Sequence record: MH719082.1
Source of the DNA: Escherichia phage vB_EcoM_IME392
Length of the DNA: 64,000 bases
Reading direction: 5' to 3' (one strand)
Part shown: piece by piece, positions 5,520-64,000 of the stretch
Numbering within the stretch: position 1 is the first letter of the stretch
How the letters are laid out: each line of letters begins with the position of its first letter
Notes under the pieces: generated by a model
The model's database searches: none
Told to the model about the DNA's origin: nothing
What the model saw: the letters and a program-made list of their open reading frames with translations, nothing else
Program-made: the position numbers and the translations under genes

Positions 5520-5740
5520 ACCTCTTTTCGTTCTAAGTAGCCACGACCTTCACATACTGGGCAAGTTATTATATCTCTGCCATCTCCGGATGGAGACGTC
5601 TTGCCAGTACCATCACAAGATCGACATTCTTTTATATCCCCAGACTTTCTTTTACGCTCTCTATTTAGAGCAGCTTCTTCGGTGTCCCATAAGGATCCGT
5701 CATTAGCTCTATACTTAGTTGTTACTATCTTGTCAACCAT
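5510..5740 (-). CDS. DnaJ-type zinc-finger small protein
   Basis: Two CxxCxGxG repeats (CRSCDGTGK, CPVCEGRGY). Confidence 0.5.
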   Translation of the reverse strand: MVDKIVTTKYRANDGSLWDTEEAALNRERKRKSGDIKECRSCDGTGKTSPSGDGRDIITCPVCEGRGYLERKEVWG

Positions 5741-5765
5741 CGTTAAACTCCGTACGTAAAAATAA

Positions 5766-6522: not shown

Positions 6523-6742
6523 CGTACTTCTCCAATGTATAGTTACCACTGCTGCTAGGATAGAGGTGAATAACTCCTTCAGGAAATCCCCTATGACCTC
6601 TTAATTCGTCCTCGGTCTGGGGAGCTTTAACGCAGTCTTTAGGGCTAACCCTATACAGCTCGCATAATCTGTGGAATGATATATGATGCATATCACCATC
6701 GGCACTTAATACAGGTCCTGGGTGAACAACATATTTAACCAT
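6509..6742 (-). CDS. hypothetical protein (77 aa)
   Basis: ATG at 6742 with GAGGAT RBS; ORF-track start at 6775 is GTG. Confidence 0.4.
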   Translation of the reverse strand: MVKYVVHPGPVLSADGDMHHISFHRLCELYRVSPKDCVKAPQTEDELRGHRGFPEGVIHLYPSSSGNYTLEKYDEQR

Positions 6743-8994: not shown

Positions 8995-9026
8995 CTTTGT
9001 TATTCCTTACGGTTGGATTGACACTT

Positions 9027-9056
9027 TAACAGCCTTTTAGCACCCTAAAAGAGCGG
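9027..9056 (-). promoter_or_regulatory. 31-bp conserved intergenic motif (putative phage-RNAP promoter)
   Basis: Abuts stop of upstream gene; about 33 nt upstream of ligase start at 8994; internal hairpin CTTTTAG-cacc-CTAAAAG. Confidence 0.5.
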
Positions 9057-37557: not shown

Positions 37558-37588
37558 TTAACAGCCTTTTAGGTCATCAAACAGGAGG
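37558..37588 (-). promoter_or_regulatory. 31-bp conserved intergenic motif (variant, overlaps 3' end of transporter CDS)
   Basis: Left half conserved; right half diverged where it overlaps last codons of 37577-38959. Confidence 0.4.
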
Positions 37589-49045: not shown

Positions 49046-50056
49046 TTAATTTTTACGGAACTTGGCGAAACGGGAAGCTGCACCACCTTCTTCCTGACCT
49101 TCGTCAGACTTATCTTCGCCGGCATCTTCGACTTTATCTTCAGACTTCTCTTCGGACTTAGTTTCAGATTTATCTTCACCAGCTTCGTCAGACTTAGCCT
49201 GATCTTCGGTAGGCTCGGACTTAGCGTCAGACTTAGTATCTTCAACTTTATCGTCTGATTTAGCTTCTTCAGCCTTAGCCTCTTCCTCAGCTTTGAGCTC
49301 TTCGAAGCCATCTTCACCAACTAACGGCAGACCCTTAGCCTTACGCTGGGAGCGAATTTCGTCCAGATCTTTACGGACACGCTTAACCAGACCTACGTAC
49401 TTATCTTTATCGAAACCTTCACGAATATAAGCCTGAGACAGAGGCTGGTAAGTCTGATCCACAACTACCGGATCAGCTTTGCTGAACAGCGGAGTGAAAG
49501 TTACAGATCCCTGGTTACCACGTACCACGGTAATTTTAACCGGAGATCCTTTGACGTCTTTATCCAGCATACCTTCCAGAACTTCTGGAGAGTCTTCCGC
49601 CAGCGCCGTAATGAAGTCGGTCAGTGCGTTAGCCACTTTACCGTTACCGATCACCGCATACAGAGTATTCGGCTTCCAGTTATCAGACGGAGTGTCGGTT
49701 TTCTGCAGGAAGAAGTAGAACAGGATGTTGTACTTCAGACCGTATTTCCAGTGATTGTACTCATTCAGCTCTTCGAGCATGTCATCCAGCTCGGCATAGT
49801 TGAAGTTCTCAGGAAGATCTTCACAGTCAGACGGAGTCTGAATACCATAACTGAAGTAACCGTGAGTACGGACTTCGCGATACAGGTTACCGACAGGGTC
49901 AGTGATGATACGACCCTGATGGCTACCTTCTGGTAAGAACGTAGCATTTGGGAAGTTACCGGTACCGCCGGACTTCTCTTTACGTTCTTTCATTTTACCT
50001 GCGAGGGCTTTGATACCGGCTACGTCTAACTTCTTAACTTGAGTTTGTTCAGTCAT
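49046..50056 (-). CDS. putative ssDNA-binding protein with acidic low-complexity tail
   Basis: Position between nuclease and helicase genes; long acidic C-terminal region; terminator downstream; no diagnostic motif. Confidence 0.35.
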   Translation of the reverse strand: MTEQTQVKKLDVAGIKALAGKMKERKEKSGGTGNFPNATFLPEGSHQGRIITDPVGNLYREVRTHGYFSYGIQTPSDCEDLPENFNYAELDDMLEELNEYNHWKYGLKYNILFYFFLQKTDTPSDNWKPNTLYAVIGNGKVANALTDFITALAEDSPEVLEGMLDKDVKGSPVKITVVRGNQGSVTFTPLFSKADPVVVDQTYQPLSQAYIREGFDKDKYVGLVKRVRKDLDEIRSQRKAKGLPLVGEDGFEELKAEEEAKAEEAKSDDKVEDTKSDAKSEPTEDQAKSDEAGEDKSETKSEEKSEDKVEDAGEDKSDEGQEEGGAASRFAKFRKN

Positions 50057-50117
50057 CTTTGTGATCTCTATTTAAACAATGTTTCAACAATCATAATCAG
50101 AGTTGCCCTCTGACACC

Positions 50118-50148
50118 TTAACAGCCTTTCGACCCTCCAAAAGAGCGG
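50118..50148 (-). promoter_or_regulatory. 31-bp conserved intergenic motif
   Basis: Upstream of SSB-like gene start at 50056. Confidence 0.5.
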
Positions 50149-50152
50149 CGGA

Positions 50153-51193
50153 CTACACTTTACGCAATCGATCTATCATTTTAGCACGATGCTGCTCTTC
50201 TGTATTGATGATCGAGTACATACGAACCAACACTGACGGATCATTATCCACTCTGTTAGCCAACTTATCCAGAGCTCCTAAGTAGATACTGGTTTCTTCC
50301 TTGATTACCTTACGGACTGAGTCAGCGAAGGTAAATCCAATACTGTCTGGGTCGAACGTAATACCGTCCAGCATCACAGCCAGCATGACATTATCCTGGA
50401 AGATATCTGACTTAATGGAATCCAGCACGCTATTCTTGCGCACTGCTTCCAATATAGAAACTACCTTAGATACCTTCGGGAACCCTTTCCGGCCATTTAG
50501 TAATTCCAGGAAGGTAAAGAACTTGCCTATGTCTTTGATAGATGTGAGCAGCAGAAACAGTTCCGGATGGTGCTCTGCTAGGATCGACAGAAACATCATC
50601 TTCTCTGTATTCGTCTTAGGAATCAGATCCTGTATCGCTTTAATATCTACGTCGGTCACGATTGCTCCCATGTGTTCGAGTATGCGAGTCACGATGATCC
50701 TGTCTGTAAGATCAAGATGCTCGACCATAACCACTCCCCAGTCTAAATATAGCTGGATGATAGGTTTAAATCGTTTAGGGAGGAACTGATTCCAAAGATT
50801 AACATAGCGATGGACAGCTACCTCCTGTCGCACGCTGTAACTATTGCCTAACTCCAGAGCCTTGTAAAAATCTGAGTTCTCGGCTAATTCGGGTTCTAAC
50901 ATGTCGATCGATACTTGCTTTACTTCTTTCTTAATTATCGATTCTAGATGATCCCGAGTAACTTCTTCTGTAGTAGTTAACAGCATGTAGGTCAGGCTGG
51001 TTACTGCAGAAGATAATGCCTCTTCGGTCTGTCCTCTGAATTTATAATAAGTACACACCCGTCGGACGATCGCCAGGGATAGGGTGAATAGGGTACGAGA
51101 ATCCCTCTTCACTGAATTAATTTCCCTATTCACCAGTTCCACTAGCTTATCGACGGTAGCGTTCTCGAGGATCTCTACCATCTCTTTTATCAT
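50153..51193 (-). CDS. hypothetical protein (346 aa)
   Basis: ORF track. Confidence 0.5.
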   Translation of the reverse strand: MIKEMVEILENATVDKLVELVNREINSVKRDSRTLFTLSLAIVRRVCTYYKFRGQTEEALSSAVTSLTYMLLTTTEEVTRDHLESIIKKEVKQVSIDMLEPELAENSDFYKALELGNSYSVRQEVAVHRYVNLWNQFLPKRFKPIIQLYLDWGVVMVEHLDLTDRIIVTRILEHMGAIVTDVDIKAIQDLIPKTNTEKMMFLSILAEHHPELFLLLTSIKDIGKFFTFLELLNGRKGFPKVSKVVSILEAVRKNSVLDSIKSDIFQDNVMLAVMLDGITFDPDSIGFTFADSVRKVIKEETSIYLGALDKLANRVDNDPSVLVRMYSIINTEEQHRAKMIDRLRKV

Positions 51194-51417
51194 TTAAATA
51201 TCTTCCTTAAGCCAGCATCTGGATCTCCTTCGTCAACCAGATCTTGCTTCATGCTAACAGCATCATTGATAGATATTTTGAACTCCTCGTCTGTTACACG
51301 AGTTATAGTTCCGTACTTACTTTCTATGGAATTACCTGGGCTGATGGAACTAAGCACCATGAATACCATAGCTTCGTTGGGCAGGGTACCTACGATATCG
51401 GACAGCTTTACACTCAT
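51190..51417 (-). CDS. hypothetical protein
   Basis: ORF track. Confidence 0.4.
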   Translation of the reverse strand: MSVKLSDIVGTLPNEAMVFMVLSSISPGNSIESKYGTITRVTDEEFKISINDAVSMKQDLVDEGDPDAGLRKIFK

Positions 51418-51420
51418 ATA

Positions 51421-51870
51421 TTACCCCATACTTGATAAAGAGATAGACTTTTCGTCTAGTTCGCATACCTCCATGATTAAAATCAGGTATTCGTAATTAT
51501 CTTTATCGTTTATTAGTTTATCCATATTTAAGGTGATGGTGAACCGATCATCTATGCTAATAGCTTCCTTGACAGCATCTTCCACTGCTTTAATTAGGTT
51601 AGATACGTCACGAGTCCAGAATGACTGGCTAAACGAGAATATCATCCTAATATTCAGCATCACAGGCTTACCTTTATATACCAGGAAGTCTTCACGAGCT
51701 CCTTGCATATCTAGGGAGGATTTAACCCACTCTTTAAAGTCCTTGATGCTGGGGTCGAGATAGACCCATGATCTTCCTCCACGAGCCCTCCCGACTTTAT
51801 ACATCTCGTTTACGGAGGGGAAGTTCCCTCCGTATTGCAGCAGGTAGTTATGAGTTCCTAATACTTCCAT
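51421..51870 (-). CDS. RusA-like Holliday junction resolvase
   Basis: FPSVNEMY...RDVSNLIKAVEDA...DDRF pattern resembling RusA PPSxN...RDLDNLxKAxxDA...DD. Confidence 0.45.
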   Translation of the reverse strand: MEVLGTHNYLLQYGGNFPSVNEMYKVGRARGGRSWVYLDPSIKDFKEWVKSSLDMQGAREDFLVYKGKPVMLNIRMIFSFSQSFWTRDVSNLIKAVEDAVKEAISIDDRFTITLNMDKLINDKDNYEYLILIMEVCELDEKSISLSSMG

Positions 51871-53129
51871 TAGTTCCTCCGGCCACCTCTGCCACCATAA
51901 GTCTGCATACGTGAGTATACATCACGACCGATCTGCTCGATTTCACCATGAGATCGCATAATCCATGGAGAACTAACTCCATCTTTACCACGACGGCATT
52001 TAGCTACTTTCAAGATCCCGCAGTGTTTCTCACTACGAGGACTCAGACCTACGGTTATCATCATATCCACGTTCTGCTGTTTACGAGCAGACTCACCAGC
52101 CGAGTCGATATTCAGTTCTTCCTCGCCCCAGTATTGAATCTTAGGCTGGGAAGCAACGAATACCAGACGAGCAGGTTCGTAGATAGGTTTAGCAATAGAT
52201 GTAAGTATGTCATAGATATGACCACCATCATCATACATGCTACCAGTTTCAGGACGCTTAAGGTTAGAGTCATAGTCGACTACCAGACAGTCATAGCGTT
52301 TCTTACCGCGGCAACTATCCAGATACTCTTCCAAATCTTCAGCACCTAAGCTACGAGACGGAACCGTAATCAGATCGATATAGTTCAGGATCTCACGAAC
52401 GTCGTCGGTGAGATGTTTATTAAGTTCGGCAACTACCTTGGCATAAGGAGTACCGGTGATCACTGCCGTAGCACGAGATAGGAAGTCATAGCGAGTTAAG
52501 TCTCCAAGAGCTACCCATAACGTGCGGCGACCCTGTGTAGCAAATCCGAGGACTTCCTGTAGCATGATAGCAGACTTACCACCACCAGGACGACCTACGA
52601 ACTGAATTACCTGACCAGGAATATAGCCATTGAATACTGATGCTTCAGTAACCACATCCAGAGTAGACTGGAATACGCCATCTAAACCACCGATGTCATG
52701 CTCCATTACAGTATCTACATCCAGACCACCCAGAGTATGTACCGGAATAGTTGAAGTAAGACTACGAGGAATCTCGCGAATCATATCAATCAACATTCCG
52801 GTATCTTCGGAGTTAGCCTTCATGATCTCGGTCAGTTTACGTTCCTGATAGAACTTGAAGAAGTTATTTACAATCTTCTCTATTTCTTTAGGATCCGTAA
52901 CCAGACGGAAGTTTTCAGCTAACTCCACAAAGTTAGATATGTCCTCGGCAGGACATATTTCACCAAGTATCGAATGAATTACAGCTGGGGTAGCATCCGG
53001 TAACTTAATACCGGACTCCACGAGGGCTCTTGCAATCTCAGTAGACCAGGGAAGATCATTAATAGTGAGTCCCATAGACTCTTTGATCTTAGGGTTAAAC
53101 AAACTTGCTACGTGTGTGATCTCTGACAT
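51870..53129 (-). CDS. DnaB-like replicative helicase (RecA-fold ATPase)
   Basis: Walker A GRPGGGKS after a ~170-aa N-terminal domain; Walker B-like VVDYD. Confidence 0.55.
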   Translation of the reverse strand: MSEITHVASLFNPKIKESMGLTINDLPWSTEIARALVESGIKLPDATPAVIHSILGEICPAEDISNFVELAENFRLVTDPKEIEKIVNNFFKFYQERKLTEIMKANSEDTGMLIDMIREIPRSLTSTIPVHTLGGLDVDTVMEHDIGGLDGVFQSTLDVVTEASVFNGYIPGQVIQFVGRPGGGKSAIMLQEVLGFATQGRRTLWVALGDLTRYDFLSRATAVITGTPYAKVVAELNKHLTDDVREILNYIDLITVPSRSLGAEDLEEYLDSCRGKKRYDCLVVDYDSNLKRPETGSMYDDGGHIYDILTSIAKPIYEPARLVFVASQPKIQYWGEEELNIDSAGESARKQQNVDMMITVGLSPRSEKHCGILKVAKCRRGKDGVSSPWIMRSHGEIEQIGRDVYSRMQTYGGRGGRRN

Positions 53130-53138
53130 TTCTATGTC

Positions 53139-54779
53139 CTATTTGCGAAATGATACCTTAGCGTGACTGATTACTTTCAGTCTACTTTTAATAGTTTCCA
53201 TCTTGGACTTCATCTGCTTATTCAGCATATAGTTATGCTTATCGAAGAAGAGTCCTACCTTAACTGCATCACCACGAGCCGAACGACCGATCGTCTGAAT
53301 TACGCTCTTGTATGACTTACCAGTTAATGGTATAATAGAATCTAAGTTAGGGATGTCGATCCCTTCGGTACCTACGGATGTAGTAATCAGCACTTTGAAT
53401 GCTAAATCCTGAGCTAGTTCCTTGAGTTCATCAAGTCCCAACCCATCCGCTTCGCCTACAGGTGTCCAAACTACCGAACTCGAGAAGAATACAGTATCAA
53501 TTCCAATAGCATTCAGATTCTTAGCGATCTGAACACCATCCTCGACCTGCACCATCGGGATATAGGTTATTCCTTTACCACCGAATACTTCATTATAGGT
53601 TCGTTTAATAGCCTCAGCAGTCATCATGCTACCCATATGCAGGTACAAACTACCTAACATATACTCGGGTCGCTCTTTCTGATACTTGGCAATAACAGAT
53701 CTGTCTTCTGACATCTCAACCAGTATTTCTGTCAACTCTACCGGAACAGGTAGGTCGTGCTCAATAATGGATGGTCCGCAATATGCTAATACAGCCATCC
53801 CTTTACTTGATGCTCCGAACTTAAATCCTTCTACGAGTAAACTGACGCCTTCCAGAGAATCTCCGGTAGCCGTAGTTCCCCAGATATACTCGGGATCAAT
53901 TAGTTCGGTAAGTCTCTGCCAACCAGATGCAGAGAAGTGGTGAGCCTCGTCGGCTATAATACAGTTTACCTGTTTAAAGAACTCGGCATACTCACCTTTC
54001 TTGTATTTATTAGTTCTCTGGAGTCCAGCAGGATTAATAACGTTAATCGGGCTATTTACATCCAGATCCCACGGAATAGTTACCCCGTACTTCTCAGCAC
54101 GTAGAATAATCTCTTCCTTAACTCTGTTAGCGAAAGTATAGATTAGTACTTTCTCTGTCAGACCCGCTTCCAGTACAGATTCGGCAGTACCGATCAGCAG
54201 TTCTGTCTTACCAGCACCGGTATATAAGCCAATAATTCCGAACTTAGAGTGGCAGATAGCATCTGCTGCACTCATCTGAATTTTACCCTTCTCTGGCTTA
54301 GGGTGATTCTGATAGATATCTATCCATTTCTGGCTAAAGTTAAATGCTGGATCTTCCAGACTATTATCGAACTGGGTAGGATCATCAGCAGTAGCGAACG
54401 CTGTAGCTCCTGGAATTACATCAGCTCCAGAGTTAATCAGCTGATATAACATCTGACCGACGCCTAATTGGCAGTTAACCTCTCCAGAGAATAGACTCGT
54501 ATATTTAATTTCTTTACGAGTCGGTAACATTCTCTTCATCCGCCAATTGTATTCCATAACATCTTCGATGGCGGTAGCGAACATGTGAATCTGTTTCAGA
54601 GCTTCCTGATCGTCAGCCGTGATCTTGCACAGCATACGAGGCTCGCGAGTAAAATGTACATTGTACGTTTTACCTACAGACTCGTTCTTAATCTTGGCCA
54701 GTTCCATGCGGATAGCTTTAGACACATCCGGATTTACTTTAGCCTTCTTACCTACAAGATCCTCTAGCTTTACAGACAT
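53139..54779 (-). CDS. SF2 DEAH-box helicase (UvsW/Res-like)
   Basis: Walker A GAGKT, DEAH box IIADEAHH, motif VI TIGRSARG. Confidence 0.6.
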   Translation of the reverse strand: MSVKLEDLVGKKAKVNPDVSKAIRMELAKIKNESVGKTYNVHFTREPRMLCKITADDQEALKQIHMFATAIEDVMEYNWRMKRMLPTRKEIKYTSLFSGEVNCQLGVGQMLYQLINSGADVIPGATAFATADDPTQFDNSLEDPAFNFSQKWIDIYQNHPKPEKGKIQMSAADAICHSKFGIIGLYTGAGKTELLIGTAESVLEAGLTEKVLIYTFANRVKEEIILRAEKYGVTIPWDLDVNSPINVINPAGLQRTNKYKKGEYAEFFKQVNCIIADEAHHFSASGWQRLTELIDPEYIWGTTATGDSLEGVSLLVEGFKFGASSKGMAVLAYCGPSIIEHDLPVPVELTEILVEMSEDRSVIAKYQKERPEYMLGSLYLHMGSMMTAEAIKRTYNEVFGGKGITYIPMVQVEDGVQIAKNLNAIGIDTVFFSSSVVWTPVGEADGLGLDELKELAQDLAFKVLITTSVGTEGIDIPNLDSIIPLTGKSYKSVIQTIGRSARGDAVKVGLFFDKHNYMLNKQMKSKMETIKSRLKVISHAKVSFRK

Positions 54780-54781
54780 AA

Positions 54782-55321
54782 TTACTCCTCTTTACTCTGG
54801 TAAAGTAACTGGATATCTGCCGAGTTCTCGACATATTCCTGAGCTATTCGAATAGCTCTAACGACCATAGCCTTCTCTCCCCAGCTTAGGAATTCTGGGG
54901 TAGCAGCCATCTTAACTACTAACTCGCGAGAAAGATCTTCGATACACTTAATCTTGTTCGAGACCTTAGGGAACGCAAGTCTATTATTAATAGTTATACG
55001 ATCAGCAGGAATCTGGGTGAAGGTCTCGCTGAATAGTCTATCGAAATCTCCGATATTTAATTCAGTGAAATAACCCTTACCCTCTTCTGTATCGAATATA
55101 CCATGAACAACTACTTCTTGTCGAATAGATACATTTAGTAAGTACTTCGAGTTCAACAAGATAACGTAGATGCTCGAATAGCTCCGAAGATCTCGTTTCC
55201 ATGCTGATAGGGACTCAGTAGGTGATCCCTTGTATTCTACTCCCGAATTCAGAAGCATCTTACAAAATGGGTCTAGGCTGTTAATTACTACAGTACTCAT
55301 TGTATTCTCCTCACGTGCCAC
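54782..55321 (-). CDS. hypothetical protein
   Basis: ORF track. Confidence 0.45.
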   Translation of the reverse strand: MAREENTMSTVVINSLDPFCKMLLNSGVEYKGSPTESLSAWKRDLRSYSSIYVILLNSKYLLNVSIRQEVVVHGIFDTEEGKGYFTELNIGDFDRLFSETFTQIPADRITINNRLAFPKVSNKIKCIEDLSRELVVKMAATPEFLSWGEKAMVVRAIRIAQEYVENSADIQLLYQSKEE

Positions 55322-55323
55322 AG

Positions 55324-55355
55324 TTTAACAGCCTTTCGACGCTAATTAAAGGTGG
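55324..55355 (-). promoter_or_regulatory. 31-bp conserved intergenic motif (variant)
   Basis: Immediately upstream of start at 55321; overlaps stop of 55346-55657. Confidence 0.45.
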
Positions 55356-55657
55356 TCTTTAACAGTTCCCAGGATAGCTTCTCTGGTGTGGATTAGGCCA
55401 GATCGATTAATCTCTACTTTGGTGGTAGTCACCATTTCGAATACTTCCAGCTCAATACCAGGATGAGCCATGCATGTATGAATCAATACAGACAGAGCAT
55501 CATCATAGCTGGGATAACCAGTGGCATATTTATGATTGTCGTTCCACAGGCGGTCGGTTGCATGCCTGCGTTCGCTGATGTAAGATATCTTACCTTCTTT
55601 CATCCGGCCTACATAATACTTAGCTTCGGAATTATCCGAAATATGTAACGTTTCCAT
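55346..55657 (-). CDS. hypothetical protein (103 aa)
   Basis: ATG at 55657 with AGGAGA RBS; ORF-track start at 55696 is over-extended. Confidence 0.5.
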   Translation of the reverse strand: METLHISDNSEAKYYVGRMKEGKISYISERRHATDRLWNDNHKYATGYPSYDDALSVLIHTCMAHPGIELEVFEMVTTTKVEINRSGLIHTREAILGTVKDHL

Positions 55658-55701
55658 AATTTCTCCTAATGGGGAGTTTTTACCTCCCCCGAGCAAAGGT
55701 A

Positions 55702-55947
55702 TTAGAATGGGCTATGACGAGATTCCGTTACTTGCAGACCGGAGAGGATCTGACCGATAAAGTCATAGCTTACACCATCTTCTACAGATGTAATCTTAAC
55801 TTCATTGGTATTTTCGATCTTCTGGCCAGTTGCCAGTAATCCGTTAGGGAGGACGACGCCTACGAATTCACGAGTATCGACTGGCTTACGAAAGTGCTTC
55901 TTAGCTGGTTTCTTATGTCTCATGAACGGATTGTTATTATAAGGCAT
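55702..55947 (-). CDS. small basic protein
   Basis: ORF track; Lys/Arg-rich N-terminus. Confidence 0.4.
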   Translation of the reverse strand: MPYNNNPFMRHKKPAKKHFRKPVDTREFVGVVLPNGLLATGQKIENTNEVKITSVEDGVSYDFIGQILSGLQVTESRHSPF

Positions 55948-56254
55948 TGTCTGATTCCCCTTTTATAGTATGATCTTTGAAAACTCTTAAACTATACGGA
56001 TTCTCTATTTCTTCGAACTGTAGACCATCAAAGCCATGTATCATATTCACATAGTTCATACTATACATAGTAATTCTGATTTGCCAGATCGTCGAATTAG
56101 AGGACTTACGAAATACTCTACACGGCTCACTAACTACAGCACCCTTAATCTTCCCAAGTTCCCTGAGAATACCAGTTATGTCCTCGATCTCGCAGAACGA
56201 TTGAAAGATGCGGGATGGACATCGTCTTATGGGACTAACGTCTGAACCATACAT
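55937..56254 (-). CDS. doubtful ORF
   Basis: ORF track only; no convincing RBS at any candidate start. Confidence 0.25.
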   Translation of the reverse strand: MYGSDVSPIRRCPSRIFQSFCEIEDITGILRELGKIKGAVVSEPCRVFRKSSNSTIWQIRITMYSMNYVNMIHGFDGLQFEEIENPYSLRVFKDHTIKGESDNAL

Positions 56255-56310
56255 AATTTTACATAATAGGTAAGTTGGACACAGAAGGACGCAGTCACGC
56301 CTCCACCGTT

Positions 56311-56341
56311 TTAACAGCCTTTTAGGTCATTAAAACGGCGG
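56311..56341 (-). promoter_or_regulatory. 31-bp conserved intergenic motif (variant)
   Basis: TTAACAGCCTTTTAGGTCATTAAAACGGCGG; abuts stop of GT32-like gene. Confidence 0.45.
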
Positions 56342-56348
56342 AGTTCAA

Positions 56349-57140
56349 TCAGTACCGAGGATCAGTATCCTGATAGTCGCGAATTAGGTCATAGACGAGC
56401 ACATCCAGACGAGTAGCATCTTCACGTTTCATGCGGGTAGGTCTGTACATATGGATACATACACAATGCTTAGACCAGACCTTAGCAGTCTGACGCTCCG
56501 TAAGTTCTTTACGGTCGATAATGTACTTCTCGAATGCGTGATAAGAGATAGGCTTTGATACTTCGACATGCTGGCACATATCGAGGAACTGCGGGTAGTC
56601 GTCAGTTAAGAAGCGACTGAATACGTCCTGGTAATAAGAGTAGTTAGGGAATTTACCACCCTGCTCCAGAGATAACGCATGAGTCTCGATCTCCTTCAAC
56701 ATCAGAGCCATAAATTCCTGATTATTGCTGGGAGAGGTCCACATGTTTATCTCGCAGTAATCTAACCGAGGGGAATAAACACGTACCTGAGTCTCGTGAG
56801 GAGTATACGTTTCGTGAGGGCTTCTGATAAAGAGAGTATCAGCATCTACATAGGAGTAACCACGAAGATCCATCATTACCTGAATCTTGAGTCGCAGATA
56901 GTCACATACAGAGGCCATCTTAGCCTTAGTTTTCAGGATATTATACGCCTTCTCCATAATAGGATCTCTGGCGAATAAATCCTGGATCATAACGCAACGG
57001 CAACCTTCGATAATATTCTCTTCGTTATCGATCACCAGTACATGATCATTAGGTCCGTATTTCTGTAAGGACTTAATGCATTCCCGAACATGGATAGGCA
57101 TTTTGGGTCCTACCCAAAGCTGGAAATAATTCTGACTCAT
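56349..57140 (-). CDS. putative DXD-type glycosyltransferase (GT32-like)
   Basis: N-terminal YFQLWVG and CDYLRLKI...GYSYVDADT resembling the GT32 sugar-binding region. Confidence 0.4.
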   Translation of the reverse strand: MSQNYFQLWVGPKMPIHVRECIKSLQKYGPNDHVLVIDNEENIIEGCRCVMIQDLFARDPIMEKAYNILKTKAKMASVCDYLRLKIQVMMDLRGYSYVDADTLFIRSPHETYTPHETQVRVYSPRLDYCEINMWTSPSNNQEFMALMLKEIETHALSLEQGGKFPNYSYYQDVFSRFLTDDYPQFLDMCQHVEVSKPISYHAFEKYIIDRKELTERQTAKVWSKHCVCIHMYRPTRMKREDATRLDVLVYDLIRDYQDTDPRY

Positions 57141-57239
57141 AGTTACCTCTATGTTATTTATTTTAAACTGGATAGGGACTAATAAAGTAAATAGTAATTA
57201 AATACTTATTAATCTTCCTCTTATCTAATGCTAAGGGAA

Positions 57240-57770
57240 GCGTACTCGAGGAGTACAGAAGCTTAGCGAAGAGCGGAGTAACCATTTGATTTAAACAGTC
57301 ACCGTAGAGAGCGAAGGAGTCGCGCCCGCTTGAGGCGGCGCGACCTCCGCTTCACCAATCCTACCGGATGGACGCCTGCGACCACCCGAGCCTACCCCTG
57401 CCTCACTCACTAAAGCCACTTCGGGCTTTACCTCGTTCCGCTACGCGATACGCAGGCAGATAGCTACACTAAGTCCCCTGGAGATGGCTAGTAAGTATCC
57501 GTTACCAGACCATGTCCAACCTAACATTGACGAAGCCAGGGACTAGGCACTCCTCGCCAATAAGCTACATTAGGATTTATGTCCGTATTTCGAAGATAGG
57601 CCGATCGGGGAGACTATGCATTCATCTCTGCTCAACCAGGAAGCACCGATTAGGGTAAATACCCAAACTATCTTCTTAATGTCACTCCTCCCAGACCGCT
57701 TCGGGACTTAGCTTAAGTCTTATCCGAATAATCTGGCATCTACGACGGACCGTAGTGTATGGAGCGTACT
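57240..57770 (-). ncRNA. ORF-free structured region (candidate ncRNA or long structured leader)
   Basis: No ORF of 60 aa or more in any frame; multiple strong hairpins (e.g. GGAGUCGCGCCCGC-loop-GCGGCGCGACCUCC at 57313-57347); lies between a 31-bp motif copy and gene start at 57140. Confidence 0.35.
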
Positions 57771-57774
57771 GCAA

Positions 57775-57805
57775 TTTAACAGCCTTTTGACTCATCAAAA
57801 GAGCG
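57775..57805 (-). promoter_or_regulatory. 31-bp conserved intergenic motif
   Basis: Internal perfect hairpin CTTTTGA-ctca-TCAAAAG; precedes the ORF-free structured region. Confidence 0.5.
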
Positions 57806-57923
57806 TAATTAGGGCCCGATTATTTCACTTAGCTTCCATCCGTTCGGGCCAACACGGATCGTACATGACGTTACCGTCGTTTCAAGTCACTCGGATTATT
57901 AGTTCCCGGTGCTCATATAAAGA

Positions 57924-58002
57924 TGGTGCCACGTAGGGAATCGAACCCTATATCAGGTAAACGTCTAGCCGTAGACTGCTGAGTGCCCTCAGCTACCCTA
58001 TC
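57924..58002 (-). ncRNA. tRNA-like element (canonical T-arm and CACCA 3' end, no canonical anticodon arm)
   Basis: UAGGG-UUCGAUU-CCCUA T-arm followed by ACGUGGCACCA; upstream perfect hairpin GCUGAG-GGCA-CUCAGC; acceptor pairing not found. Confidence 0.3.
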
Positions 58003-58104
58003 ACTTAACCGAACCATCGGCAAATCTTTCACAGATACTTACACGTGATTTTCTCTGATCGGATCTGGTGATTCCTCGGAGTCGAACCGAGGAGTGGCAT
58101 AATA

Positions 58105-58180
58105 TGGTGGTCCATACTGGTTTCGAACCAGTGACCAAGCGATTATGAGTCGCCTGCTCTCACCACTGAGCTAATGGACC
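58105..58180 (-). tRNA. tRNA-Met (anticodon CAU; could be initiator, elongator or lysidine-Ile)
   Basis: Manual cloverleaf: acceptor GGUCCAU/AUGGACC, D-arm GCUC/GAGC, anticodon stem GGCGA/UCGCU with loop CUCAUAA, T-arm ACUGG-UUCGAAA-CCAGU, encoded ACCA. Confidence 0.8.
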
Positions 58181-58649
58181 GAACTAGATTGAGCGATAGG
58201 CTATGGAGTACCTTACCATCGGGCGTCTTTCGCTAAATAGCCCATCATGGGCTACCGCAGGGGCATGACACCTATCGCTCAAATTGGTCGGGATCGTGGC
58301 CCACGTCGGAGGATTTGCCAAACTCCCCATTATCATAGCCTAAGCTATCCAGACGGCCGTAACTACCCTGCTCCGGTACATGCGATAATGGGGACGTATC
58401 CAAAGATGTGGAGATCCCGTTAAAATATCTTAAGCTTCTCGCTATGTGTGTCCTACACTCTACCCTTGCGGGGTACCGGAGGATGAATCCGAACTTCCTG
58501 CGACCACACACGGAGGCCCTTGCAGACGTGCTTTATTGCGCTCATCCTGGCATAGCGAGAACTTAAGATATCTATTGATGCGCACCAGATAAGTATTTCC
58601 CAAGCCATGAACTTAATCTGGGATCTTGACCTATCCAGTGCGACTTATG
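58181..58649 (-). ncRNA. structured inter-tRNA region with long-range helices
   Basis: 12-bp inverted repeat TTGAGCGATAGG / CCTATCGCTCAA (58190-58201 and 58271-58282); 17-bp interrupted repeat 58431-58448 / 58551-58567. Confidence 0.3.
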
Positions 58650-58725
58650 TGGTACTCCCTACTGGATTCGAACCAGTGACCGTCGGTTTAGAAGACCGAT
58701 GCTCTATCCTCTGAGCTAAGGGAGC
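58650..58725 (-). tRNA. tRNA-Arg (anticodon UCU)
   Basis: Manual cloverleaf: acceptor GCUCCCU/AGGGAGU, D-arm GCUC-AGAGGAUA-GAGC, anticodon stem UCGGU/ACCGA with loop CUUCUAA, T-arm ACUGG-UUCGAAU-CCAGU, encoded CCA. Confidence 0.8.
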
Positions 58726-59302
58726 TTAACTTTAGGATGACCTCTTAGCTTACCATCGCGAAAGCTACATGGAGTGTAGTTAACGTGAACTAAGAGGTCA
58801 TCATAAAATCAGTTACTGACGAATTATACTTTCCCAACCATCCACATATACTGCGTTGGCTATGTAAAGAATGCAGAACAAGCCAACGATTAAAGGATTA
58901 ATCATTGTACTTCTCCATTTAATTAAGTTACCTGCTTACTGTTACAGGGACGCCGTTCGTCGCGCCAGATTACCAATTGGCGTATTAAGCCAATCTCGCC
59001 AACCGCGTAACGCCATTGGCTGGTATCACATAGGCTTGTAGCCCTCAGTCAACCTATCCTGAGGATGAAGATCAGATACTCTCTAACGGCGGGATTGATA
59101 GTCCCAGAGTACGATCTCTTTGCCATTCTCGTATGACCTAGGAGACGACTGCCCTGGTTAAGGAGACCAGACAGCTGATATGGTTTAGTTTATTTTTAAT
59201 TTGAGTCCCACTCATACCTTACAGACTCAAGCACTGCAGACCACCATGAAGCCGACTCGTACGCTAACAGTCGACACCACGGATCCATGAAACTCCAACA
59301 AT

Positions 59303-59332
59303 TTAACAGCCTTTCGACTCATCAAAAGAGTG
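59303..59332 (-). promoter_or_regulatory. 31-bp conserved intergenic motif
   Basis: Consensus match at upstream edge of tRNA region. Confidence 0.5.
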
Positions 59333-59485
59333 TTAAATTGTCCGCTCCCTATCACCGAGCACTGTGATGATGGGAAAATAGGGAGCGAAGCGATTCCTAA
59401 GTTTTATCTCTTCTCTAAGTGATTAACCGTTACATACGATGTACCTTCTCGAAAGAATTAAGCCGGTATTGGCACTTCAGACACT

Positions 59486-59516
59486 TTAACAGCCTTTCGA
59501 CCGTACAAAAGAGCGG
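59486..59516 (-). promoter_or_regulatory. 31-bp conserved intergenic motif
   Basis: Exact 31-mer identical to copy at 61173-61203. Confidence 0.5.
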
Positions 59517-59521
59517 CGTAA

Positions 59522-60064
59522 TTAGACGCTCGCCTCAGGCACTTTAACAGCCTTTGGACGTGTAAAAAGAGCGGGATTATACCATTCTGGGGTACGATAG
59601 AAAGAGATCTTACGACCCTCTTTCTTCCAGAAGTAGAATTTATCGTTGAGGTAGTTACGGTACTTCTCGTAGACTGTCTCACCAGGAGCACCTGATACAC
59701 ATGCATACGGAGTCATATCGGTCTCTGGACCTACTACCAGATTTTTAGGTAGTGCCACAAGACGGGATAAAATTTCTTCGGTTGCATGGAGCCGTCCGGT
59801 ACGTTCAAAGAATAGCATGCATAAATAGCTTGCCAAGTCACGAACGAAGTTGTAGTTACCTGACGATTCACGAACCCACTTAGCACACGGATGATTAACA
59901 TGCGTCTGCTTATAAATACCCTCGATAGCGTTTTCGCCATCCAGAACATGATGAGCAGTAGATAATAACTGAGCACACTCAATAATCATTTTATTCTGGT
60001 GCATAGGCATACAGTGGTCCATAGCACATTCTAACGCATCTTCGTGAGTACGGAAAATATTCAC
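59522..60064 (-). CDS. hypothetical protein (C-terminal 23 codons coincide with a copy of the 31-bp motif)
   Basis: ORF track; GTG start with AGGAG RBS. Confidence 0.45.
   Translation of the reverse strand: MNIFRTHEDALECAMDHCMPMHQNKMIIECAQLLSTAHHVLDGENAIEGIYKQTHVNHPCAKWVRESSGNYNFVRDLASYLCMLFFERTGRLHATEEILSRLVALPKNLVVGPETDMTPYACVSGAPGETVYEKYRNYLNDKFYFWKKEGRKISFYRTPEWYNPALFTRPKAVKVPEASV
59544..59574 (-). promoter_or_regulatory. 31-bp conserved motif copy inside annotated CDS 3' end
   Basis: Tandem with copy at 59486; encodes last 23 codons of ORF 59522-60064. Confidence 0.4.
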
Positions 60065-60148
60065 AATAATTACTCCTAACGTGGTTGCTTACTTTAAGTC
60101 TCTCGTGAAAGATTTAGAGTAAGCATCGGAGGAATTACCTCCGACACT

Positions 60149-60179
60149 TTAACAGCCTTTCGACGGCACAAAAGAGCGG
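60149..60179 (-). promoter_or_regulatory. 31-bp conserved intergenic motif
   Basis: About 85 nt upstream of start at 60064. Confidence 0.5.
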
Positions 60180-60181
60180 TT

Positions 60182-60343
60182 TTAAATTTTACATGCATCT
60201 CCGCAGTCGTCGTCACCAGGCTGGCTGATAACTTCGTCTACGTTAACCATGCGATCTTCTACACGACGAGATGCCTCGTCTAATTCTTCCTGAGATGGGA
60301 GATTGGAGAAATCCAATTCTTCACCAGATTTATTGCCTGACAT
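60182..60343 (-). CDS. small acidic protein (53 aa)
   Basis: Internal ATG at 60343 with GGAG RBS. Confidence 0.35.
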   Translation of the reverse strand: MSGNKSGEELDFSNLPSQEELDEASRRVEDRMVNVDEVISQPGDDDCGDACKI

Positions 60344-60812
60344 AATCACTCCACACGTTAATAACTTCTTTACCACAGGATTTAGCATAGGCTACACAGT
60401 TACCTGTGCCACCCGAACTACCATCCCATAGGGCTAATCCCATCTGACTACGGTTAACCATGTATCGGTTACGCACCATCATCTTGAAGGAATCATACCC
60501 AGGCTCGGACACTATAATTGTGCGACGACTTTTTCTGCATAGCTCAGTCCATTTTTCTGTATCTGCAGATCGCCACATTTTGGGTTGGTCAATCATAGGG
60601 ATTGTTGCAAAGTATGGTATTCCGAGATTGGCACATGCCTGAGCACATGCCATATCCCATCCTAACGCCATACCTATAAACCAGCAGTCCACGCTATTCT
60701 TAGCTGTAAGCTCCTGGATGTGATGTTCGGCAAACTGGGTAAGATGATCATGGCTAAAGTTATCCCATCCACCCAGCTTATCTGGCCTATGACCAGTCAC
60801 GAACATAAACAT
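60330..60812 (-). CDS. YpsA/DUF1273-like (SLOG superfamily) nucleotide-binding protein
   Basis: FVTGHRP N-terminal block and IGMALGWDMACAQAC resemble YpsA LAITGYKP ... ISGQLGVELWAAEAA. Confidence 0.45.
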   Translation of the reverse strand: MFMFVTGHRPDKLGGWDNFSHDHLTQFAEHHIQELTAKNSVDCWFIGMALGWDMACAQACANLGIPYFATIPMIDQPKMWRSADTEKWTELCRKSRRTIIVSEPGYDSFKMMVRNRYMVNRSQMGLALWDGSSGGTGNCVAYAKSCGKEVINVWSDYVRQ

Positions 60813-61153
60813 TACTTCTTGCCCATCTTAGCCTGCATAGCACGGACGGTATCCATGGCGCTGGCCAATTTGGCTGAAGTATCCTGCGGACCATCTTCTT
60901 CTAGCTGTTTCTTAAGGGACTCCATACGATCAGTAGTACCCTTAGTATCCATCTCGATTAATTCGTTGATGGTCGAACCACCCACGTTAGGTAACTTACC
61001 CAGCTGAGTAAGATCCTTAACTTCTGGGATTTTAACATGAAGTTGAATAGACTGGGATGCTCTCGCGAACGACCCAGCACGACGATTGTCTCCTACCTTA
61101 TTGTACAGGGAAGATAGGTTACCCAGGAACGTAATGATATCAGCAGTTTTCAT
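60812..61153 (-). CDS. small helix-hairpin-helix-like protein
   Basis: ATG at 61153 with GGAGG RBS; LPNVGGSTINELIE resembles an HhH motif; ORF-track start at 61195 lies inside the 31-bp motif. Confidence 0.35.
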   Translation of the reverse strand: MKTADIITFLGNLSSLYNKVGDNRRAGSFARASQSIQLHVKIPEVKDLTQLGKLPNVGGSTINELIEMDTKGTTDRMESLKKQLEEDGPQDTSAKLASAMDTVRAMQAKMGKK

Positions 61154-61172
61154 ATTTGATTCCTCCAACAAG

Positions 61173-61203
61173 TTAACAGCCTTTCGACCGTACAAAAGAG
61201 CGG
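61173..61203 (-). promoter_or_regulatory. 31-bp conserved intergenic motif (outermost copy at strand-switch region)
   Basis: 20 nt upstream of start at 61153; identical to copy at 59486. Confidence 0.5.
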
Positions 61204-61349
61204 TTTTTACTCAAAAAGACTCTTAAAATTATGTTTTCGAGCTTTACAGGACGCCCCTGCGGTCTAAAGATAGGCCTCAAAAGGGTGTTTTTGTGAAGGT
61301 TGTCCGAGGCCCGTCCGTGACGTCTTCAATTATAAACAGGAGAAATACA

Positions 61350-61823
61350 ATGGGCGAGTTAGCTAAGCAAAACTTAAGTACTATTCAAAAGGGTCTTTCC
61401 TTAGTTAATTCGGAGGGCTCTGAATCCGTAAACGTTAAAGCCCTACAAGGTAAAGAAATAGGCTTACAGATTCTTCAGTTAGGTCTGGCAGAATCCGAGG
61501 CTAACCGAGTAGCAAAGCTTAACGGGATTATAGAGATCCTGGAAAAGAAAATATTCGATCCTGAGCGATTAGATAGACTTACCGAGAAGGAGCAGATCGA
61601 GAGATATCAGCTGGCCTTAGCTAGCGCATCTCAATCGGCAGCATTCGTTAAATCGACCATCGGCTCGATTAACTGGACAGCTATCGAAGTTTCTCTCTTA
61701 AGTCTGGCATCCGCCATTGAGACAGCCAACGAAGGTCAGTCTCCTAAGGATCGTAAAGACATGTCTACTATTGCCAATAACTTGATTAAGCAGTTGGCAG
61801 AAGGCATTGGTCCTAAGGGGTAA
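61350..61823 (+). CDS. hypothetical protein (possible small terminase subunit by position)
   Basis: ATG at 61350 with AGGAG RBS; immediately upstream of terminase-like ATPase. Confidence 0.45.
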   Translation: MGELAKQNLSTIQKGLSLVNSEGSESVNVKALQGKEIGLQILQLGLAESEANRVAKLNGIIEILEKKIFDPERLDRLTEKEQIERYQLALASASQSAAFVKSTIGSINWTAIEVSLLSLASAIETANEGQSPKDRKDMSTIANNLIKQLAEGIGPKG

Positions 61824-61826
61824 GCC

Positions 61827-63653
61827 ATGGCTGATGCATTAGATGAGTTTATTGAAGCATGTGGCTCTAGACTCGAAGCTATGCATCAGTTAGCATTGAT
61901 GAGTGGCTACGAGGAGCGGGTTCCAACGATCCAAGAGTTCGTAATGGATCCATACTACCTGGGTAAGTCCTTGGTAGATGCTGATGGTGTCTGCTCGGTC
62001 TATCCTATTTGGATGGATGCTCTGGCTAAGATTTATCCTACTCCGTACACTTCACCAGCCGTAGAGATTTATCTCACTGGTGGTATCGGTCTTGGTAAGT
62101 CTACTGCTGCTAAGATTATCACTCTCTATGACTTGTGCAAATTGCTATGTCTTAGAGATCCTCGTGCACATTTTAAACTTCTGCCATCCACAGTAATTCG
62201 CTGGATGCTGATGAACGCCACTAAAGGTCTGTCCTACGATGTACTCTATGCAGAGATCATCGAGTGGATAGAGAATAGCCCATTCTTCAAAGGTAAGATG
62301 ACTGGTGGTAAGAATCCTCGTACTCTGTTCATTAAGAACGTAGACTTAGGATTCGGTTCTCGTGGTCAAGATGCTCTGGGTCAGGCTACCGTAGGTGCCA
62401 TCTTCTCAGAGATAAACGACATGACCGTAGTTCACGGTCAAGCAGAAGATAACTTTGATACCATCTATACTCGTATGAACTCTCGTTTCGGGGGTAAAGG
62501 GGTAGAGATGATTGGCCACTTGATTCTGGACTCTTCGAATAAGGGAAACCGTTCCTTTATCGATGTTCGTCTAGAGGATAAGGCCAAGAAAGGAATTCAC
62601 GACTATCTGTTATTCAGATACGCTCACTGGGAAGCTAAATGGCACCTCGGCGGGTATTCTGGGGAAATGTTCTACGTCTATGCTGGTGACCAGTATCGAG
62701 ATCCGTTTATCTTCGATGAGAATACTCTCAAGATTAAAGACGGTCTGGAGCCATCTCGTATTATCTCTGTACCTGTTGAACATAGACAGGAATTCGAGAC
62801 TAACATTGTTAAGTCTCTTAGGGATCTTGCAGGTGTGTCCACATTCGGTACATGGTCGTTCATCTCGTCCTACGAGGTGCTTAACCGAGCTGCTGATCAC
62901 ATTAACCCTACTGAATCTAACGTGGTGGTTCTGGACTTCTTCGATAAGGAGCAGACTCTTCACCAGACTATAGATATTCCTAGACTTGCCTTCCTTAATA
63001 AGAAGGATAGGTTCATCCATATTGACTTGGGTCTTAAGAACGACTCAACTGGTATAGCCTGTTCCTATCTCGATGGTTATGTTGACCAAGAGACTTACGA
63101 TCCTCTAACCAGTACGCGCATGGTTACTCGTGAACCTAAGATCGTTACTGAGTGGGCGTTAGAAATTACCTGCCAGCCTGGTCAGGAAGTTCCTATCTAC
63201 AAGATTAAGAACTTCTTAATAGAAGCATCTCAGCAGGGTTACCCAATTAAAATGGTAACCACCGATGGATACCAATCCACTAACTTACGTCAGGATTTAA
63301 CTCTGGCTGGGTTCGAGACTGCTCTGCTATCTGTTGACCGGACTAAAGATCCATATAACTACTTAAGGAACTCGATTCTCGAAGGTCGCAGCACTATTCC
63401 AGCTGTACCTAAGTTGATCAAAGAACTTAAGGAGCTAGAGGAAGGCGAAGGTAAATTCGACCATCCACCAGATGGCTCTAAGGATATCGCGGATGCCGTA
63501 TGTGGATCCCAATGGTCTGTTAAGGAGAATATCCATAAGATCGGGTCTACTGCTACGGTTGAAGATCTTCAAGTTGCACTCCACGAACTTAATAAGTCTA
63601 GGGATGCGAAGGAGATGTTTCGGAACATTATTAAGCAACGAGTGGGTGGCTAA
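61827..63653 (+). CDS. putative terminase large subunit
   Basis: 608 aa; Walker A GGIGLGKST near N-terminus; first gene pair after strand switch. Confidence 0.5.
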   Translation: MADALDEFIEACGSRLEAMHQLALMSGYEERVPTIQEFVMDPYYLGKSLVDADGVCSVYPIWMDALAKIYPTPYTSPAVEIYLTGGIGLGKSTAAKIITLYDLCKLLCLRDPRAHFKLLPSTVIRWMLMNATKGLSYDVLYAEIIEWIENSPFFKGKMTGGKNPRTLFIKNVDLGFGSRGQDALGQATVGAIFSEINDMTVVHGQAEDNFDTIYTRMNSRFGGKGVEMIGHLILDSSNKGNRSFIDVRLEDKAKKGIHDYLLFRYAHWEAKWHLGGYSGEMFYVYAGDQYRDPFIFDENTLKIKDGLEPSRIISVPVEHRQEFETNIVKSLRDLAGVSTFGTWSFISSYEVLNRAADHINPTESNVVVLDFFDKEQTLHQTIDIPRLAFLNKKDRFIHIDLGLKNDSTGIACSYLDGYVDQETYDPLTSTRMVTREPKIVTEWALEITCQPGQEVPIYKIKNFLIEASQQGYPIKMVTTDGYQSTNLRQDLTLAGFETALLSVDRTKDPYNYLRNSILEGRSTIPAVPKLIKELKELEEGEGKFDHPPDGSKDIADAVCGSQWSVKENIHKIGSTATVEDLQVALHELNKSRDAKEMFRNIIKQRVGG

Positions 63654-64000
63654 ATGGCAGAAAACGAAGTGGTCTCTAAGCAAGACTTAGATGACAAACC
63701 TGGTTCTCGCCAGGAGGTCTTAGCAAAGTTGCTAGACGATACCATCACTATGAAGCATAGTGATGGATTGTTGGGCACGGTACAGGCTTACCTTACCGAT
63801 CGCCTTACCAATATGGTAACCACTCGTGAAAAGTATTTCAACGAGCTGGCGAGATTTCGCTATAACTATATCACAGCTGGTATCTATGATATCATCTGCA
63901 ATGACGTGCTCACCAATACGGATGATGGTGGATTCGTCATAGAGATTGAAGGTGATGAAGAACTGACTCAGGAGGCGAACGAGCTAATTAAGGCTCTGGC
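63654..64000 (+). CDS. hypothetical protein (partial, continues past window end; portal by position?)
   Basis: ATG at 63654 overlapping stop of terminase gene; open to window edge. Confidence 0.35.
   Translation, partial: MAENEVVSKQDLDDKPGSRQEVLAKLLDDTITMKHSDGLLGTVQAYLTDRLTNMVTTREKYFNELARFRYNYITAGIYDIICNDVLTNTDDGGFVIEIEGDEELTQEANELIKAL

Follow-up and report, generated by a model that had tools for sequence, protein, structure and literature searches.

The locus described here lies in a window of 64,000 nucleotides (nt) of Escherichia phage vB_EcoM_IME392 (sequence record MH719082.1), upstream of a glycosyltransferase-like gene (56349-57140). It is a minus-strand island of transfer RNA (tRNA) genes, carried by a rare E. 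coli phage, kin of EP_H11 and IME392. Since the two tRNAs and the genes around the locus are all on the minus strand, every feature of the island is read on that strand. In this direction, three tandem copies of a promoter-like motif are followed by a leader domain (L), a small open reading frame (ORF), a long hairpin (Lead1), tRNA-Arg(UCU), four modules named M1, M4, M3 and M2, tRNA-Met(CAU), a tRNA-like element (E), a fourth copy of the motif and a large structured RNA candidate (G). The overall kind is already known, that of a phage tRNA island with extra RNAs; its "spacers" consist of structured RNAs, conserved and exchangeable, in a mosaic arrangement. A preliminary description had singled out the region as ORF-free and highly structured: the observation was partly confirmed, and the first interpretation given to it is partly supported.

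ARAGORN, applied to the 64 kb, identified two tRNAs only, the same two that had been described before, both with an encoded CCA end: tRNA-Arg(UCU) at 58650-58725 and tRNA-Met(CAU) at 58105-58180, which score 71.3 and 70.3 bits, respectively, with the Rfam tRNA model. Both have an ordinary appearance. The tRNA-Met(CAU) is not initiator-like, and its close homologues in other phages are annotated either as Met or as Ile; possibly, it could be a tRNA of the AUA-reading tRNA-Ile2 type. The codons AGA and AUA, which are rare in E. coli, are used by the phage genes 6.0 and 8.6 times per 1000, respectively, which fits a tRNA-Arg(UCU) and, possibly, a CAU tRNA reading AUA.

The covariance models of Rfam 15 were searched with E-values up to 10 on the whole locus and on its sub-regions, and at the gathering threshold on 12 related tRNA islands. 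Among the families searched, including group I and group II introns, RNase P RNA, 6S RNA, riboswitches, ribozymes, C4 and Y RNA, only tRNA was found above threshold in the window and in the 12 islands. The other permissive matches on the locus were to microRNA or long non-coding RNA models, at chance level.

The locus was compared with those of EP_H11 (L001), L146, L147 and L148/L149 (a 113-kb ENA contig), and with more distant phages. Positions 50000-64000 of the window are 94% identical to EP_H11 (111 kb), and no other close record was found among 50,697 phage records. EP_H11 has been grouped with IME392 among phages with predicted hypermodified thymidine (PMC12686479; 10.1101/2025.03.26.645540). 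The L146 locus is 98% identical to that of the window and has the same layout, and L147 is 83-97% identical in the parts common to both. The leader, M2, tRNA-Met and G are common to the locus versions, while the remaining content varies. In IMG/VR, nothing was found by searching with the flanking 263-amino-acid (aa) protein, and only distant, non-syntenic matches with the flanking 180-aa protein. A host or prophage origin of the non-tRNA parts of the locus was rejected, as they have no match in 5,426 E. coli genomes.

Stem-closed modules around the tRNA genes

M2 (58184-58284) is a three-way-junction module of about 95 nt, located directly 5' of tRNA-Met; its helix P1 is formed by an inverted repeat of 12 base pairs (bp), 58189-58200/58271-58282, which is perfect, as previously reported. 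Homologues of the module were found in EP_H11, L147 and L148, in phiEaP8, an N4-like Erwinia phage that carries it directly behind tRNA-Tyr, and in two IMG/VR contigs. Over 31 pairs, 96.8% of the alignment cells are paired. Both sides have changed in 11 of these pairs; the corresponding numbers are 3.8 for shuffles (0/500) and 0-1 for slid controls. The unpaired core TGGTAAGGTACTCCA does not vary among the four copies of the alignment, and both IMG/VR copies contain it as well. It was with a pattern derived from this core that the two IMG/VR members, which are more divergent, were retrieved; they score 45 and 34 bits. An exact 16-mer scan returned phiEaP8 only, in addition to chance matches in coding sequences, and no copy of the core was found in 185,579 species-representative genomes. 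One IMG/VR copy of M2 sits 210 nt after a cluster of six tRNAs; the copy in L183 has no tRNA within its 7.4 kb, and is the sole exception to the tRNA-cluster setting among the homologues of M1, M2 and M3.

In M3 (58285-58419, 135 nt), the closing stem is acceptor-like and 7 bp long (CGGGAUC/GAUCCCG), and A-CCA comes after it. The module has homologues in EP_H11, in L148, in the Yersinia phage JC221, which is T4-like, and in the Kuttervirus SenALZ1, where a different 7-bp stem, GGGUUCG/CGAACCC, is likewise followed by A-CCA. In the alignment, 41 pairs were evaluated: 90.2% of the cells are paired, and 12 pairs carry double changes, against 6.5 in shuffles (2/500). A covariance model of M3 found one copy per island. 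An exact 14-mer scan of IMG/VR returned 100 stretches, and no genuine homologue is among the 80 listed. The L148 homologue contains a run of about 16 G residues (approximately 6603-6618), probably an artefact of assembly or sequencing.

M1 (58580-58644) is a hairpin module (z -3.72), whose upper part (GGUCAAGAnCCCAGAUUnAGnUCAUGGCUUGG) is conserved and whose lower stem is variable. A blastn search with the inter-tRNA spacer, which also detected homologues of M2 and M3, showed that it is about 81% identical to sequences of the Kuttervirus phages Vi01, STML-13-1 and 3384-D8, in which tRNA-Tyr and tRNA-Ser are its neighbours on either side; it is absent from EP_H11, L147 and L148. Compensatory double changes were observed for 4 of the 25 predicted pairs. 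Together with the results for M2 and M3, this is an indication that the helices of the three modules have been kept by compensatory change across phage families.

The remaining two modules feature long stems. M4 (58428-58568) is a domain of about 140 nt with a predicted minimum folding energy (MFE) of -52.8 kcal/mol (z -3.51). The repeat at 58431/58551 was formerly given as 17 bp and perfect: it does exist, but perfect pairing extends over 11 nt only (58436-58446/58551-58561), within a closing stem of about 21 bp interrupted by one 1-nt bulge. Lead1 (58727-58811; MFE -34.7 kcal/mol, z -5.97) lies directly 5' of tRNA-Arg, and is 97.5-100% identical in EP_H11 and L147. The 13-bp repeat GATGACCTCTTAG/CTAAGAGGTCATC, which had been placed 5' of this tRNA, is real and is contained within the arms of a 23-nt, 87% complementary repeat, 58731-58753/58785-58807.

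The earlier suggestion that precursor-processing structures could be held here is thus supported by stem-closed modules, located between the tRNAs, whose structure is backed by covariation. The alignment proposed at that time as a check revealed compensatory changes in M1, M2 and M3, and also in E', an element described below. A covariance scan returning the two tRNAs only had been named as one part of a refutation. Rfam did return only these, but as a test this asks too little, since it does not hold the families to which the modules belong; it is by comparison between phages that the modules are seen to be real.

The islands of close relatives differ by whole modules. The EP_H11 locus is without the small ORF, M1 and M4; it keeps most of the Lead1 hairpin and has, in addition, a tRNA-Gly and an odd 85-nt tRNA. 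The L147 locus is without M1, M4, M3 and E, and carries a 67-aa ORF and E'. In L148, the leader is followed by M3, M2 and tRNA-Met, and exactly after the ACCA of this tRNA comes the sequence that, in the window, follows the ACCA of E, so that E is missing precisely between two ACCA ends. Breakpoints between relatives thus fall at module ends, and a short repeat, ATATTTTAAC, is found at some of the junctions (58427-58436 in the window, about 5960-5975 in L001, and about 6500-6510 in L148, at the fusion of leader and M3). From these two features, the modules behave as cassettes that are gained and lost among close relatives, and ATATTTTAAC may provide the micro-homology for such events.

The odd tRNA of EP_H11 (5662-5746, minus strand) recurs in Vi01 (L008, 1668-1752). 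It is about 85 nt long, and its anticodon region is enlarged by some 13 inserted nt (..CAGGAAAGYTTCGAGAGAACAAGGTG..); it is missed by ARAGORN, and the EP_H11 copy scores 52 bits under the Rfam tRNA model. Its acceptor stem is also found in STML-13-1, on an ordinary tRNA-Ile(GAU). The 67-aa ORF of L147 (1587-1790) has the Lead1 hairpin on one side and tRNA-Arg on the other, and extends into the tRNA. It shows cysteine motifs of the CxxCxGxG type; no match was found in Pfam, and the window does not contain this ORF.

The tRNA-like elements E and E'

After tRNA-Met, at 57924-58098, lies E, a tRNA-like RNA of 175 nt (predicted fold -60.8 kcal/mol, z -2.63). An acceptor-like stem, GCCAC/GUGGC, encloses a T-loop-like hairpin, two long arms and a T-arm, UAGGG-UUCGAUU-CCCUA, and is followed by A-CCA. 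In the preliminary description, "tRNA-like fragments" had been noted near 57925-58100; the likeness to tRNA holds, while the fragments turn out to be parts of this single element. E has in common with canonical tRNAs the T-arm, the acceptor stem and the A-CCA end, but tRNA finders detect no cloverleaf in it, and its candidate "anticodon" hairpin has a loop of 4-6 nt. Neither E nor any of the spacers matches the Rfam tRNA model at E-values up to 10. Of the further non-canonical tRNAs previously envisaged, E is therefore retained as a tRNA-like RNA, and not as a decodable tRNA; no further functional tRNA was found. As to a transfer-messenger RNA (tmRNA), the ARAGORN tmRNA search was negative, there is no Rfam tmRNA match, and a G3:U70 pair is missing from the acceptor-like stem.

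E is 98.3% identical in EP_H11, exactly absent in L148, and replaced in L147 by E', a different tRNA-like RNA of about 185 nt that fills the exact slot of E. Over about 190 nt, E' is 86-89% identical to sequences of Limestonevirus, Agtrevirus, Kuttervirus and Taipeivirus, and 7 of the 54 pairs predicted from their alignment show compensatory changes. Copies of this family, located at 1501-1692 of L178-L182 (Ackermannviridae of Dickeya, Salmonella and Klebsiella), are either unannotated or covered by "hypothetical protein" calls, on either strand. The possibility that E is a divergent member of the E' family was rejected, as the E' covariance model gives it 16 bits, against 20-26 bits for ordinary tRNAs. 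E and E' have their architecture in common, and homology, which is not demonstrable at this score, is not claimed. The architecture of E also resembles that of a Kuttervirus element of about 150 nt: an acceptor-like stem, long internal arms, a T-arm, an NCCA or similar end and a position at or near the end of the island are found in E, in the E' family and in this element. The Kuttervirus RNA (L008, 1765-1915; L152, 2024-2173; L153, 1736-1885) has a 7-bp acceptor stem, two arms and a T-arm; a comparison of Vi01 with SenALZ1 shows covariation in both the acceptor stem and the T stem.

The non-tRNA stretches might be seen as decayed tRNA genes or recombination scars without a function of their own, whose hairpins are relics or passive spacers. 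In E, the T-arm-like hairpins and a 6-nt "anticodon-like" loop are readable as degenerate tRNA parts; moreover, module content differs between close relatives, ATATTTTAAC is present at junctions, and M4 is without homologue. Decay, however, would hardly preserve the helices of M1, M2, M3 and E' by compensatory changes across phage families, or leave the unpaired core of M2 invariant, and the modules are invisible to the Rfam tRNA model even under permissive conditions. In addition, identity is higher for E (98%) and G (97%) than for coding DNA and for the tRNA genes themselves, which are 78-87% identical between sister phages. We consider such an origin quite unlikely. The lower identity of the tRNA genes suggests that tRNA alleles may have been swapped while the flanking modules were kept.

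Promoter-like motifs and the large RNA candidate G

A 31-nt motif, CCGCTCTTTT-N8-AAAGGCTGTTAAAKTG, occurs at 21 minus-strand sites of the window, against 0.04 expected by chance, usually 15-60 nt upstream of gene starts. Split beta'-like proteins of a multisubunit RNA polymerase are also encoded by the phage (genes 16457-18025 and 19904-21418). Because of its many copies before gene starts and of these polymerase genes, the motif is read as a candidate promoter of the phage-encoded polymerase. Scans for sigma-70 promoters and intrinsic terminators gave results at or below chance. At the head of the island, three copies are arranged in tandem (59299-59555), with AAAGGCTGTTAAAKTG at 59540-59555, 59482-59497 and 59299-59314, each after a CCGCTCTTTT-N8 hairpin half; the island transcript presumably starts there. 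The last of these sites lies within a 20-nt imperfect palindrome (region 59298-59341), and a degenerate copy of the motif is found on the plus strand at 59325-59340. Sites elsewhere in the window include 2080-2095, 9022-9037 and 60145-60160 (minus strand).

The tandem motifs are followed by L (58931-59298), a structured and conserved domain present in all four locus variants, with 90-96% identity in EP_H11, L147 and L148. RNAalifold predicts 87 pairs, 3 of them with compensatory double changes, as in the hairpin GUCGACU/AGUCGGC, which appears as GCUGGCU/AGUCAGC. An ORF of 30 aa within the leader (59196-59288) was rejected as a gene, not being conserved in EP_H11.

The region had been described as ORF-free, which is mostly correct. 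The exception is a small ORF at 58813-58905, coding for a hydrophobic product of 30 aa (MINPLIVGLFCILYIANAVYVDGWESIIRQ); its ATG is preceded, at 7 nt, by a GGAG ribosome-binding site. Conservation is seen at the protein level in L147, where a 33-aa homologue (1395-1496) is identical at 19 of 28 positions (68%) and similar at 26 of 28 (93%); the ORF is absent from EP_H11 and L148.

G (57229-57771, about 530 nt) lies between the fourth copy of the motif (57772-57805, with the AAAGGCTGTTAAAKTG part at 57772-57787) and the AT-rich leader of the glycosyltransferase-like gene. Its GC content reaches 60%, against about 43% nearby. Compared with shuffled sequences, the predicted fold of 57230-57775 has a z of -3.36 on the minus strand (-205.6 kcal/mol) and of -1.75 on the plus strand (-167.9 kcal/mol). 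A hairpin-rich stretch beside a copy of the motif had been pointed out before, and the analysis bears this out, placing the motif directly upstream on the minus strand. The core of G (57290-57771) is the most conserved segment of the locus, being 97.7% identical in EP_H11 and 96.8% in L147, where the neighbouring 180-aa gene is 86.9% and 82.9% identical, respectively. The few substitutions found in predicted helices are of the GU<->AU/GC type. G was rejected as protein-coding, as no ORF is conserved across variants: those of at least 35 aa differ between them and are broken by 1-nt indels. No Rfam match was found at E-values up to 10, in a search with 3.7 kb or with 621 nt; blastn against phages returned EP_H11 only, and the exact scans (16-mer in IMG/VR and 20-mer in JGI metagenomes) returned chance matches only, one of them inside a GC-rich coding region. 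The larger non-coding RNA proposed early on has thus found support in a strongly conserved candidate.

G might also act in cis, as a long structured 5' untranslated region (UTR) that controls translation or stability of the glycosyltransferase-like mRNA. It lies directly upstream of this gene, on the same strand, and because no terminator-like site is predicted between the two, it may be only a leader. As the motif lies 15-60 nt from the start codon at other genes, the copy at 57772 is the only obvious promoter for this one, and G and the gene are syntenic in all relatives. However, a leader of about 630 nt whose identity (97%) exceeds that of its own gene (95.2% at the nucleotide level, EP_H11) and of the other neighbour would be unusual. 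Furthermore, G matches no known riboswitch or leader family, and an AT-rich spacer of about 90 nt separates its structured part from the ribosome-binding site. A role as leader is possible, and in our judgement the less probable of the two.

The strand asymmetry of the fold bears on another explanation, according to which the locus works as DNA, as a replication origin, a packaging site or a recombination hot spot, with hairpins that are cruciforms or protein-binding sites. Such a role could account for a long non-coding region rich in repeats and palindromes and for the exchange of cassettes at short repeats. It is very improbable, as many G-U pairs are valid on the minus strand only, and GU<->AU/GC substitutions keep the pairing of RNA and not that of DNA; the region is, in addition, set among tRNA genes downstream of promoter-like motifs, and no iterons were found.

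Comparison with known systems and proposed organization of the island

Extra stable RNAs in phage tRNA clusters, T4 species 1 and 2, have been known for about 50 years. The corresponding T4 genes, rnaC (species 1) and rnaD (species 2), are annotated as small stable non-tRNA RNAs of 119-139 nt, located in the phage tRNA cluster on the tRNA strand. The island modules are of the same type in that they lie between or after the tRNAs, on the tRNA strand; a tRNA-like 3' part is seen in rnaC and in E. Like E, rnaC has a tRNA-type T-arm (CCGGG-UUCGAAU-CCCGG) next to the terminal stem. There is no sequence homology to rnaC or rnaD (blastn, word size 7, chance matches of at most 24 nt). Unlike the T4 cluster, the island features more and different modules, some of them plain hairpins without tRNA-like ends, and then the 530-nt G.

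ROOL and GOLLD occur in phages and prophages, exceed 500 nt, are highly structured and are found "often near tRNA islands" (PMC12286853); a GOLLD that has been studied is located downstream of a tRNA-Met (PMC12286853; PMC5737381). Ornate folds with extensive support from covariation and homo-oligomeric cages are further characteristics of these RNAs. G is similar in size, in the stability of its predicted fold and in its location, as it follows tRNA-Met by about 330 nt in the tRNA island of a phage. It differs in that no covariance model of these families matches it, even in the permissive 621-nt search. ROOL and GOLLD come mainly from Firmicutes, Actinobacteria and environmental sequences, whereas G belongs to a coliphage group.

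RNase P cleaves non-tRNA substrates, including the phage M3 RNA and C4 RNA (PMC11143913). These substrates (4.5S RNA, tmRNA, phi80 M3 RNA and the P1/P7 C4 antisense RNA) have a terminal helix followed by a 3' RCCA, which the enzyme recognises (PMC11143913; PMC12710915). Two modules of the island resemble them in this feature: M3, with its 7-bp stem and A-CCA, and E, with stem, T-arm and A-CCA. No match to C4, tmRNA or 4.5S RNA was found in the island, by sequence or with Rfam.

The organization that we propose, with a probability of roughly 0.7, is that of a co-transcribed precursor of tRNAs and small RNAs, in a setting like that of T4 species 1 and 2, to which G is added as a large non-coding RNA in the niche of ROOL and GOLLD. 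Transcription would start at the tandem copies of the phage-specific promoter-like motif and produce a precursor containing the leader, the 30-aa ORF, tRNA-Arg(UCU), tRNA-Met(CAU) and at least six stem-closed modules (Lead1, M1, M4, M3, M2 and E). Because of their acceptor-like stems and A-CCA ends, and of the T-arm in E, M3 and E would be cut out like tRNAs by the host maturation machinery (RNase P and 3' trimming), and M4 and Lead1, whose stems are long and nearly perfect, would be suitable for RNase III. Two tRNAs, for codons of frequent use in the phage, and several small stable RNAs would result, as in the T4 cluster; the further copy of the motif would drive G.

This organization builds on the two tRNAs, the modular anatomy, the conservation across phage families, the covariation in M1, M2, M3 and E', the gain and loss of cassettes and the exceptional conservation of G, all of which were observed. 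Several points weigh against it. Transcription from the motif, itself a putative promoter by its sequence and position, is a step that we infer, and so are the way in which the precursor would be processed, the stability of what it yields and any function. M1, M2, M4 and Lead1 are without CCA ends, the acceptor-like stem of E measures 5-6 bp only, and M4 is present only in the window and in the near-identical L146, with no homologue elsewhere. The module alignments comprise 4-6 sequences, so that the covariation statistics are indicative, the signal being consistent. As to G, only 2 double changes were found in 188 predicted pairs among 3-4 near-identical sequences, which are too conserved for covariation, and its fold is a predicted one; it has no homologue beyond four close relatives, and the missing terminator leaves room for the 5' UTR discussed above.

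A further reading can be layered on the proposed precursor, in which E, E' and M3 would serve as decoys or sponges for host enzymes directed to tRNA, such as anticodon nucleases, tRNA-targeting defences and processing or modification enzymes. The tRNA-like modules mimic the acceptor and T-arm end without an anticodon arm, they travel with tRNA islands between phage families, and sister phages have different tRNA-like cassettes in one slot. No defence or anti-defence gene is linked to these modules here, and the known phage counter-measures to tRNA-targeting defences use real tRNAs; a role as decoy is rather unlikely. Only tentatively can a broader view be advanced, namely that G represents a new class of large phage non-coding RNA in the ROOL/GOLLD niche, and that M1, M2, M3, E and E' belong to an uncatalogued repertoire of horizontally exchanged tRNA-island RNAs, some of which would mimic the acceptor end in order to exploit host tRNA processing, and perhaps act on tRNA-directed enzymes or defences.

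At least four of the companion RNAs (M1, M2, M3 and E') are not idiosyncratic to this phage, being structured sequence families found across Ackermannviridae, N4-like, T4-like and EP_H11-like phages of enterobacteria; in public genomes they are unannotated or mis-annotated as proteins. To these, G adds a candidate RNA of 530 nt that is more strongly constrained than the 180-aa gene next to it. The roles of T4 species 1 and 2 and of ROOL and GOLLD are still unexplained, and the island offers concrete RNAs for study, in culturable coliphages and their relatives.

Elsewhere in the window, on the minus strand (37577-38959), lies a full-length gene for a transporter of the BCCT (betaine/carnitine/choline) family (Pfam E-value 1e-92), an unusual auxiliary gene for a phage.

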